Shown: piece by piece, positions 1 to 918 of the stretch
Position numbering within the stretch: the first letter of the stretch is position 1
Layout of the letters: every line of letters begins with the position of its first letter
IMG/VR virus record: IMGVR_UViG_3300024999_000040
Span: 64,001-128,000 of that record
Length of the DNA: 64,000 nucleotides
Origin: a virus
Direction: 5' to 3' (one strand)
Translations under genes and position numbers: made by a program
Notes under the pieces: model-generated
The model's input: the letters and a program-made list of their open reading frames with translations, nothing else
Told to the model about the DNA's origin: nothing
The model's database searches: none

Positions 1-90
1 TTCATAATTATTATCATATGGTATTACTGTTTCTATTGGTGAAGTAAATATAATTTGTTTCCTGCAAAATAAACTTTCTTTAGTCTGCAT
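1..90 (-). CDS. cas6: 5' end of probable Cas6 endoribonuclease (runs off the window edge)
   Basis: Manual translation MQTKESLFCRKQIIFTSPIETVIPYDNNYE; RBS AAAGGAGA; overlaps cas5 stop; beta-strand followed by IPxxxNY resembles Cas6 N-termini; only 30 aa visible. Confidence 0.5.
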   Translation of the reverse strand, partial: MQTKESLFCRKQIIFTSPIETVIPYDNNYE

Positions 91-712
91 ATATGTAATC
101 TCCTTTTATGCTCCATATAAATATATTTTGATTATCATCTTCGTCAAAATTTTTATCATAATTAAATTCATTATTAAATCGTAGAGATATAATTCTTGAA
201 TCATAACTACCTAGTTTTGAATTATATTTTGTATATGCTGTTAACATAGGGATAATGTGTCCAGTTCCTATATTAATTGGAGTATATTGACCATAGCCAA
301 TCCCTTGTTTGTTAACTAATTCAATTTCTTGTATTGGCATCTCTATTTTTGCTAATGAATCGGCTTGCCCCAATGTTAAAGTTCTAAACATGTTTATAGG
401 TAATTTTATATCTGTATATATTATTAATTCAGTATCAAATAAATATTCTTTAGAACATGCGTCAGTAGTCATATTCTTTGGTTTTTGGTTTTTAATATCC
501 ACTTTATACTTCTTGACTAAATCTTCGAATAGAGTGTCATATTTAAAGGTATATCCTAATTTAAAGTTGTTTATATTAAAACCATAGATATTTCTTAAAA
601 TGCCAATCACTGTACTAGGAGGAGGACACCTATGTGTCATTCTATTTTTGGAAGTATACGGTATTCCAAAATGTGCAATAGGAGCTATAATTTTAATTTT
701 CTGTAGTTTCAT
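80..712 (-). CDS. cas5: CRISPR-associated Cas5 (type I-B-like RAMP)
   Basis: N-terminal A-H-F-x-x-P...T-x-x-x-PPPSTVIGIL signature and later LTLGQ motif typical of Cas5. Confidence 0.8.
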   Translation of the reverse strand: MKLQKIKIIAPIAHFGIPYTSKNRMTHRCPPPSTVIGILRNIYGFNINNFKLGYTFKYDTLFEDLVKKYKVDIKNQKPKNMTTDACSKEYLFDTELIIYTDIKLPINMFRTLTLGQADSLAKIEMPIQEIELVNKQGIGYGQYTPINIGTGHIIPMLTAYTKYNSKLGSYDSRIISLRFNNEFNYDKNFDEDDNQNIFIWSIKGDYIYAD

Positions 713-736
713 TTTTGTATTTACCTCACATTTGTT

Positions 737-764
737 ATTATATCAACTTAGTTCAACAAGTCAA
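737..764 (-). promoter_or_regulatory. sigmaA-type promoter for cas5 with conserved spacer box
   Basis: TTGACT-16-TATAAT; spacer contains TGAACTAAGTTGA. Confidence 0.65.
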
Positions 765-849
765 GTGTTTTTTATTTATTGATTCTTTTTCTAGATACCT
801 CCTTTTAGTTGCAAATTTGCTAACTTGTTTATTTGTTGACTGTGATTCC

Positions 850-879
850 ATTATACTATAGTAGATAACATCTTGTCAA
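850..879 (-). promoter_or_regulatory. sigmaA-type promoter
   Basis: TTGACA-18-TATAAT. Confidence 0.6.
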
Positions 880-918
880 GCATATTATTATATTTATTTA
901 ATTGAAAATTTTACTTCT

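Follow-up and report, generated by a model that had tools for sequence, protein, structure and literature searches.

What is a cas5 gene doing at the very edge of a phage sequence, behind two promoters and joined to no more than the beginning of a cas6 gene? The question is raised by a stretch of 64,000 nucleotides (hereafter the window), which comprises bases 64001-128000 of the IMG/VR virus record IMGVR_UViG_3300024999_000040, a linear sequence of 148,716 bp with a GC content of 28.9% and a CheckV completeness of 76%. An initial annotation of the window took the two genes for a rearranged, minimal Cascade-like module of a CRISPR system, possibly serving transcriptional repression, inter-phage competition or interference with host CRISPR. 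Our analysis of the whole record indicates that cas5 probably heads a complete, interference-only and divergent type I-B locus on a large temperate phage of the SPbeta/c-st-like kind. The operon lies on the minus strand, starts at the first bases of the window and leaves it at the first base, which is why the rest of the locus was not seen by the initial annotation. The apparent two-gene module appears to be an artefact of the window edge, with a full Cascade-Cas3 system behind it. Positions are given below on the window, on the record (genome = window + 64000) or on the excerpt L007, which covers genome 46001-65500 (L007 = genome - 46000); other L numbers designate loci fetched for comparison.

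The first gene of the operon, cas5 (window 80-712, minus strand), encodes 210 amino acids and is preceded by a GAGG ribosome-binding site. Its product matches TIGR02593, the Cas5 N-terminal domain, with 47.9 bits (cutoff 17.8) and PF09704 (Cas_Cas5d) with 32.2 bits (cutoff 23). The adjacent cas6 (257 amino acids; genome 63317-64090 = L007:17317-18090, minus strand) has its ATG at window position 90 and its first 30 codons at window 1-90. Its product scores 83.6 bits against TIGR01877 (cutoff 58.65) and also matches PF01881 and PF21350. The two genes share 11 nt, the start of cas6 lying within the end of cas5, as would fit translational coupling. What had been observed in the window, a phage-encoded cas5 placed first after two promoters and coupled to a Cas6-like N-terminus, is therefore confirmed by the profile matches, the overlap and the two promoter-like sites upstream. 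The statement that the remaining 63 kb hold no cas gene or array is likewise right for the window, the sole array and cas set lying just beyond its first base.

The sequence next to the window edge, where the initial annotation had advised a search for cas7, cas8, cas3 and an array, contains all four. Directly after cas6 comes cas8b (365 amino acids; genome 62219-63316, minus strand), followed after 46 nt by cas7 (354 amino acids; genome 61108-62172, minus strand), the product of which matches TIGR02585 (Cst2/DevR) with 92.9 bits (cutoff 72.75). Between cas7 and the array lies a leader of 200 nt (genome 60908-61107, minus strand), and in the CRISPR array itself (genome 60022-60907, minus strand) 14 repeats enclose 13 spacers on the coding strand. 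The last gene, cas3 (676-683 amino acids; genome 57964-59994, minus strand), begins 27 nt after the last repeat. The helicase core of Cas3 reaches 215.6 bits against TIGR01587 (cutoff 102.45) and its fused HD domain 58.2 bits against TIGR01596 (cutoff 43.45), and the HD dyad, Walker A (GLGKTE), DEIH and motif VI (QRFGRVNR) are all intact. The order on the record is thus cas5-cas6-cas8b-cas7-leader-array-cas3, with all six reading frames intact. The components of a type I-B system are all present: a Cas3 with HD and superfamily 2 (SF2) helicase domains, Cas8b, a Cst2/DevR Cas7 together with Cas5, and Cas6 with an adjacent array. The canonical I-B order cas6-cas8b-cas7-cas5-cas3-cas4-cas1-cas2 is not found here, and in this respect the gene order was correctly called rearranged, cas5 heading the operon instead of following cas6-cas8-cas7. 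Gene order is typical for the I-B subtype and not strictly defining.

The assignment of cas8b, the signature gene of the subtype, deserves a closer look. The 365-amino-acid protein belongs to a family of 58 clusters among 1.84 billion representatives, nearly all of them 365-440 amino acids long, and the alignment of 45 members shows four invariant cysteines in a CxxC...CxxC arrangement, a hallmark of Cas8b1/Cst1. A search of PDB sequences with the family profile returned only noise, and a Foldseek search with the AlphaFold2 (AF2) model of the protein (pLDDT 88.9, pTM 0.83) gave a marginal result (E 6.4e-3). The matter was settled by a VIA-align search with the same model and by one family member, which matches TIGR01908 (Cas8b1/Cst1) with an E value of 3.3e-7. 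In the VIA-align search, chain 8fcj_I of a type I-B CRISPR-associated transposon (CAST) Cascade entry aligned over 337 residues with Z 14.7, followed by 7r2k_Y of an I-A Cascade entry (Z 9.0) and 8ip0_J of an I-B Cascade entry (Z 8.5), all of which we take from their chain size to be Cas8 large subunits. Judged by the modelled fold and the family match, the protein is a compact Cas8b, the large subunit of I-B.

Within cas8b, codon 285 is an ATG with GGAGG upstream at the right distance, and residues 285-365 align separately to the short chains 9cro_J and 8h67_M of I-A and I-B Cascade entries, presumably Cas11 small subunits. A nested cas11 of 81 amino acids starting at M285 is therefore predicted (genome 62219-62464, minus strand). 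In 11 of 12 family loci the codon aligned to position 285 is ATG, TTG or GTG and has a Shine-Dalgarno-like box 7-10 nt upstream, and the twelfth has an ATG one codon upstream of the aligned start; where the column holds leucine, TTG is used by eight of the nine. The pattern fits a conserved internal start for a putative Cas11. Internal in-frame translation of Cas11 has been described for types I-B, I-C and I-D (bioRxiv 10.1101/2020.04.18.045682; PMC11899642; PMC13199841).

The locus lacks nothing but the adaptation module. At E <= 1 the profiles of Cas1, Cas2 and Cas4 (PF01867, PF09827, PF01930) matched nothing in the 148.7-kb record, and the whole record holds no second array or second cas gene set. 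A Pfam and NCBIfam scan of eight neighbours, comprising the integrase, the excisionase-like helix-turn-helix (HTH) protein and small phage open reading frames (ORFs), detected no Tn7-like transposition genes (tnsA/B/C, tniQ). From these components the following mode of action can be proposed. Two sigma-A-type promoters would transcribe cas5 to cas7 and probably read through the array into cas3. Cas6 would cut the repeats and leave the 8-nt handle TTATAAAT, and Cas5, Cas7, Cas8b, Cas11 and Cas6 would assemble with the CRISPR RNA (crRNA) into Cascade. The complex would bind a target flanked by a protospacer-adjacent motif (PAM) and recruit Cas3, which would degrade the target DNA. Because cas1, cas2 and cas4 are absent, the phage would carry a fixed set of spacers, and any new spacer would need host enzymes for its capture.

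The cas locus is phage DNA, since it is placed between a group of tail and lysis genes and a group of replication genes. The integrase side carries an endolysin, a tail fibre protein and a homing endonuclease, with minor tail proteins and a tape measure protein farther out; the opposite side carries a PolIII-type DNA polymerase and a helicase. Homologues of YopQ, YopR, MazF-like proteins and a ligase are common to the record and Clostridium phage c-st. From the promoters to the integrase, 9.56 kb recur with 100% identity in two further assemblies (ENA ERZ27254726 and SRA SRR1658467). An identical Cas8b is present on a 191.7-kb contig, which suggests that the full length of the phage is near 190 kb.

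How widely is such a system distributed? Among cultured phages, the Cas7 search returned one, Clostridium phage c-st (L008), in which CST017 (annotated as Cas5), CST018 (annotated as Cas6), a cas8 split by ISCbt1 and CST023 (Cas7) stand in the same order, followed behind cas7 by a mini-array of three repeats and lacking cas3. Plasmid pCLG2 (L039) shows the same layout, its genes being annotated cas5-cas6-'hypothetical'-'hypothetical'. The Cas5, Cas6, Cas7 and Cas8 of the present phage share 32-37% identity with the c-st and pCLG2 orthologues over 98-99% of their length. The order cas5-cas6-cas8-cas7-array, with or without cas3, also occurs on metagenomic phage contigs of 95-153 kb and on one 134-kb uncultivated virus genome (UViG). 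The lineage is further present in nine Clostridia genomes, including Clostridium carboxidivorans P7, C. difficile CD160, Hathewaya limosa, Terrisporobacter and Alkaliphilus, where arrays of up to ~69 repeats are situated behind cas3 in some cases and between it and cas7 in others. No cas1, cas2 or cas4 was found within the fetched flanks of these loci. Across more than a dozen of them the five-gene set is kept at 30-55% identity, which implies purifying selection. A scan for related loci in IMG/VR, pattern-based and insensitive for this family, gave none with Cas7 and two with a Cas8 alignment. In two public records of the lineage, c-st (CST019-CST023) and pCLG2 (IRP62_RS13475, IRP62_RS13225), Cas8b and Cas7 are labelled 'hypothetical protein', so that standard annotation in GenBank and RefSeq under-calls such loci.

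The relation to canonical type I-B can be read from H. limosa and C. difficile CD160, which have a Cas1 elsewhere in the genome, in a canonical I-B locus. In BLAST comparisons with these canonical loci only Cas3 (~30% identity) and Cas5 (E 0.002) are detectable. The repeats of the lineage end in ...TTATAAA(T/C), as seen in this phage (...TTATAAAT), c-st, L017, L018, L021, L022 and L025, whereas the canonical repeats of H. limosa and CD160 end in ...ATGTAAA(T/G). With so few genes detectable by BLAST and a distinct repeat, the cas5-first system is, on sequence grounds, an I-B lineage that has diverged deeply and has a repeat family of its own. It may be added that H. limosa (L025, L034) and CD160 (L022, L035) each harbor the two I-B lineages side by side, each lineage with its own large homogeneous array. 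The four arrays have ~24-89 copies, and Cas1 lies near the canonical lineage only.

The array of the present phage has repeats of 30 nt, typified by GTTTTAATTTAAATATTGTATATTATAAAT, and spacers of 33-37 nt. Variation among the repeats mostly spares the 3' part, in which positions 19-27 and 29 are invariant. The leader opens, right behind the stop codon of cas7, with an inverted motif, TTGTC-N32-GACA(A/G) (L007:15050-15095 = genome 61050-61095, minus strand), which is invariant in six loci with the array behind cas7, the relatives being L011:12194-12240, L014:12190-12235, L017:7243-7285, L021:4259-4305 and L026:11198-11240. An RNA hairpin after cas7 was considered and is not supported over a DNA site, the arms being invariant and free of covariation. 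Owing to this lack of covariation, the motif is more likely a DNA site bound by a protein, or else a sequence-specific RNA element, than a plain hairpin. A separate observation concerns two near-identical phage contigs of 147-153 kb, the arrays of which (L014:12189-13478 and L015:12189-13209) differ by a block of four repeat-spacer units. Spacer gain at the leader end was rejected as the cause since the block lies inside the array, behind its first spacer, and the difference reads as a recombinational deletion or recombination.

Several observations weigh against a complete and working type I-B system. The Cas5 match to the subtype-specific Cas5t profile TIGR01895 (E 1.6e-17, residues 1-147) stays at 63.8 bits, under the equivalog cutoff of 96.7, and the 365-amino-acid protein itself matches nothing in Pfam, NCBIfam or PHROGs. 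With the record 76% complete by CheckV, adaptation genes may lie elsewhere in the phage. The array is unusually heterogeneous, with 10 repeat variants among the 14 copies, and it does not vary among the assemblies seen, a pattern in keeping with an absence of recent spacer uptake that could also reflect decay. The mapping of spacers to the phage itself, to other phages and to host-type genomes, which the initial annotation had proposed, led to no credible target. The 13 spacers gave only chance matches of 12-17 nt against the phage and all fetched loci (blastn-short). The whole array gave no full-length spacer match against INPHARED phages and PLSDB plasmids, where the matches were weak, mostly AT-rich and placed around the repeats. 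Against 399 Clostridia genomes it returned noise and the related array of an Alkaliphilus metagenome-assembled genome (MAG). Exact 24-mers of spacers 4, 12 and 9 were absent from IMG/VR, and an exact 28-mer of spacer 1 and a 22-mer of spacer 12 from the JGI metagenomes, although such exact-string scans allow no mismatch and their absence is weak evidence.

Some of these facts also make the case for a relic, that is, a system with open genes that no longer works and is heading for loss, as in c-st with its insertion sequence (IS) in cas8 and its missing cas3. Besides the repeat variants, the missing adaptation genes, the identical array and the lack of protospacers, relatives with IS insertions and cas3 loss (PMC8473940) speak for decay. 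The state of the locus itself does not. All six reading frames are open, including the internal Cas11 start and the motifs of Cas3; the part of the repeat that would form the crRNA handle is mostly spared; strong promoters are kept; and the conservation of the five-gene set implies purifying selection. We consider a relic unlikely and retain the interpretation of an intact interference system.

If the system is intact, against what is it directed? As no spacer search gave a credible protospacer, the class of target has to be inferred. Defense of the phage and its lysogen against competing mobile elements that share the host, for example superinfecting phages, phage-plasmids or satellites, appears the most likely role, because this is what has been reported for the homologous toxin-phage loci of C. 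botulinum, the spacers of which match other botulinum neurotoxin (BoNT) phages and phage-plasmids (PMC8473940). Among the roles put forward in the initial annotation, inter-phage competition is thus the one most likely to hold.

The promoters bear on a second possible use. Both sites upstream of cas5 are sigma-70-like consensus matches read from the sequence only. The distal one, TTGACA-18-TATAAT (window 850..879, running 879->850 on the minus strand), agrees with the consensus at 12 of 12 positions. The proximal one, TTGACT-16-TATAAT with a TG extension (window 737..764, running 764->737 on the minus strand), agrees at 11 of 12. In the proximal promoter, AACTAAGTTGA directly precedes the -10 element, and a box of the form TTAACTAA(G/A)NTGA occupies the same position in about 10 of the 27 strong promoter-like sites of the 148.7-kb record; the distal cas promoter lacks the box. 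The earlier report of a phage-wide spacer box in one of the two promoters is thereby borne out, as is, in so far as the operon uses a promoter type common to other phage genes, the notion of a module wired into phage regulation. As a class, TTGACA-N4-5-TTAACTAA(G/A)NTGA-TATAAT recurs about ten times in the record (window 2427, 7601, 42755, 48494, 55114, 64178 (-); genome 22708, 50686 (+), 139024 (-)). Promoters of this class mostly head a leftward block of small accessory genes, at the end of which the cas operon lies.

If, as in Vibrio phage ICP1, the system served to attack an anti-phage island or satellite residing in the host, and were expressed early in infection or induction, this would agree with the proximal promoter, which is of the class heading this leftward block of accessory or early-type genes, and with the place of the operon at the end of the block. 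Yet the spacer searches yielded no target, whatever its class, and the arrays of the homologous BoNT phages are reported to match phages and phage-plasmids (PMC8473940). In the lysogen, moreover, expression could be constitutive from the distal consensus promoter, which has no box. An offensive system of this kind seems unlikely, yet is an alternative to be taken seriously, and defense against rival elements remains the preferred role.

The proposal of a reduced, nuclease-free Cascade module, which would repress transcription or interfere with host CRISPR and destroy no DNA, finds some ground in the relatives. Cas3 is not near the locus in c-st, pCLG2, L011-L013, C. carboxidivorans and L019, so a binding-only mode may exist in the lineage, and the phage-type promoter box suggests phage control. 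In the present phage, however, cas8b, cas7 and an array of 13 spacers adjoin, cas3 follows the array at 27 nt with every catalytic motif in place, and no spacer matches the phage's own genome. The presence of Cas3 and the lack of a transposition gene among the neighbours also argue against a CAST-type I-B or type IV-like system. With a complete interference system adjoining, short of nothing but the adaptation genes, the minimal-module reading is not supported for this locus and a nuclease-free function is very improbable here; the repressor idea could still apply to relatives without cas3. The interpretation offered by the initial annotation is thus supported in part.

Finally, that the locus is ordinary bacterial CRISPR DNA at a prophage boundary or a misassembly join is scarcely credible: an integrase and an excisionase do lie within ~2.5 kb downstream of cas3 and related loci do occur in bacterial chromosomes, but one and the same contig has tail, lysis and homing-endonuclease genes past the integrase and replication genes on the opposite side, the junctions are 100% identical in independent assemblies, the cas promoter has the phage's own box, phage c-st carries a homologous locus, and the gene order departs from that of ordinary host I-B loci, with only Cas3 and Cas5 detectable by BLAST against canonical clostridial I-B. 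The initial annotation had named an ordinary complete host CRISPR locus in the adjacent sequence as a finding that would overturn it. The locus is indeed complete for interference, but it is neither host DNA nor ordinary in its order.

The region between cas3 and the tail genes contains a few further features. The tyrosine integrase (401 amino acids; genome 55390-56595, minus strand) was assigned by profile matches. An excisionase-like HTH_17 protein of 68 amino acids, also recognised by a profile match, is encoded on the minus strand between the integrase and cas3, within genome 55390-57898. Between cas3 and the excisionase lie two minus-strand genes, one for a phrog_2349 protein of 136 amino acids with no assigned function (L007:11488-11898) and one an ORF of 83 amino acids (L007:11182-11433); neither is kept beside cas3 in relatives. 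Situated between the tail and lysis genes is a gene for a 239-amino-acid protein (L007:5731-6450, plus strand = genome 51731-52450), in which a GIY-YIG homing-endonuclease N-terminus is joined to a DnaD/replication-initiator-like C-terminal region.

A more far-reaching idea is that the cas5-first lineage forms a distinct mobile-element variant of type I-B. Its features would be a Cas8b of ~365-400 amino acids, a nested Cas11 of ~80 amino acids, an array between cas7 and cas3 in many members, and a cas3 expressed from array read-through only. Were cas3 made only from read-through after Cas6 processing, the supply of the nuclease would be tied to the supply of crRNA, and the conserved TTGTC-N32-GACAA element at the leader head could be the point of control. 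We put this forward tentatively and regard it as rather doubtful. If true, few complete Cascade-Cas3 systems with a Cas8 would be smaller (~6.8 kb), and the system would be a candidate for a compact editing tool. Apart from that idea, the whole interference system fits into ~6.8 kb, and the internal Cas11 start of its compact cas8b is well conserved.

How does the locus compare with known systems? Vibrio phage ICP1 with its type I-F system and the systems of huge phages are phage-borne interference CRISPR-Cas, often without adaptation genes, and aimed at competitors. The present locus differs from that of ICP1 in subtype and host clade, and whereas the ICP1 target (PLE) has been named, the spacers here are without a match. 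With canonical I-B1 (Cst1/Cst2/Cas5t), as in Thermotoga maritima (PMC13199841), the Cascades 8IP0 and 8H67 and the I-B CAST 8FCJ, it shares the same set of components, namely a Cas8b with CxxC...CxxC, a Cst2/DevR Cas7, Cas5, Cas6, an HD-helicase Cas3 and a Cas11 inside cas8b, as well as repeats of 30 nt and spacers of ~36 nt. It departs from canonical I-B in having cas5 and cas6 first, the array inside the operon before cas3 and no cas4-cas1-cas2. The Cas8b is also smaller, with 365 amino acids as compared with 62.7 kDa in T. maritima, and the predicted Cas11 has 81 amino acids as compared with 15.1 kDa (PMC13199841).

In C. difficile, five-gene partial I-B operons without cas1, cas2 and cas4 have been described by Boudry et al. 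2015 (PMC4556805), among them an 'additional divergent' operon, CDR20291_2998-2994, with its own array, CRISPR 20. These operons resemble the present locus in being five-gene and interference-only and in having their own array, and they stand beside a complete I-B locus. The locus of C. difficile CD160 (L022) reads cas5-cas6-cas8-cas7-cas3-array and adjoins int/xis, its array following cas3, unlike that of this phage, which precedes cas3.

The closest likeness is to the loci of C. botulinum group III elements. Skarin et al. 2011 (PMC3098183) reported CRISPR regions with Cas3 and Cas5 on the BoNT phage p1_BKT015925 and Cas3, Cas5 and Cas6 on plasmid p2, and Le Gratiet et al. 2021 (PMC8473940) described type I-B loci on BoNT phages and plasmids, a figure legend listing Cas5, Cas6, Cas8b, Cas7, Cas3, Cas4, Cas1 and Cas2. 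Most of these loci are without Cas4, Cas1 and Cas2, some are without Cas3, and they are unrelated to the chromosomal I-B loci (PMC8473940). The locus described here has in common with the c-st/pCLG2 lineage the order cas5-cas6-cas8b-cas7, the array behind cas7, carriage by large SPbeta-like phages or plasmids, the usual lack of Cas4, Cas1 and Cas2, and repeats ending in TTATAAA(T). By gene order and orthology, by its own repeat and by its carriage on a phage or plasmid it belongs to that lineage, in which p1_BKT015925 is also counted. It is unlike c-st and pCLG2 in coming from an uncultured environmental host, in having an uninterrupted cas8b, where that of c-st carries an IS element, and in having an intact cas3, which both lack. 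The mobile-element I-B lineage has thus already been published, and the present locus is an intact new representative of it from an uncultured phage. It introduces no new principle, being one more case of a temperate phage that would arm itself and its lysogen with fixed spacers, but the lineage, known from C. botulinum group III elements, now also includes uncultured environmental phages and, with the relatives above, several other Clostridia.

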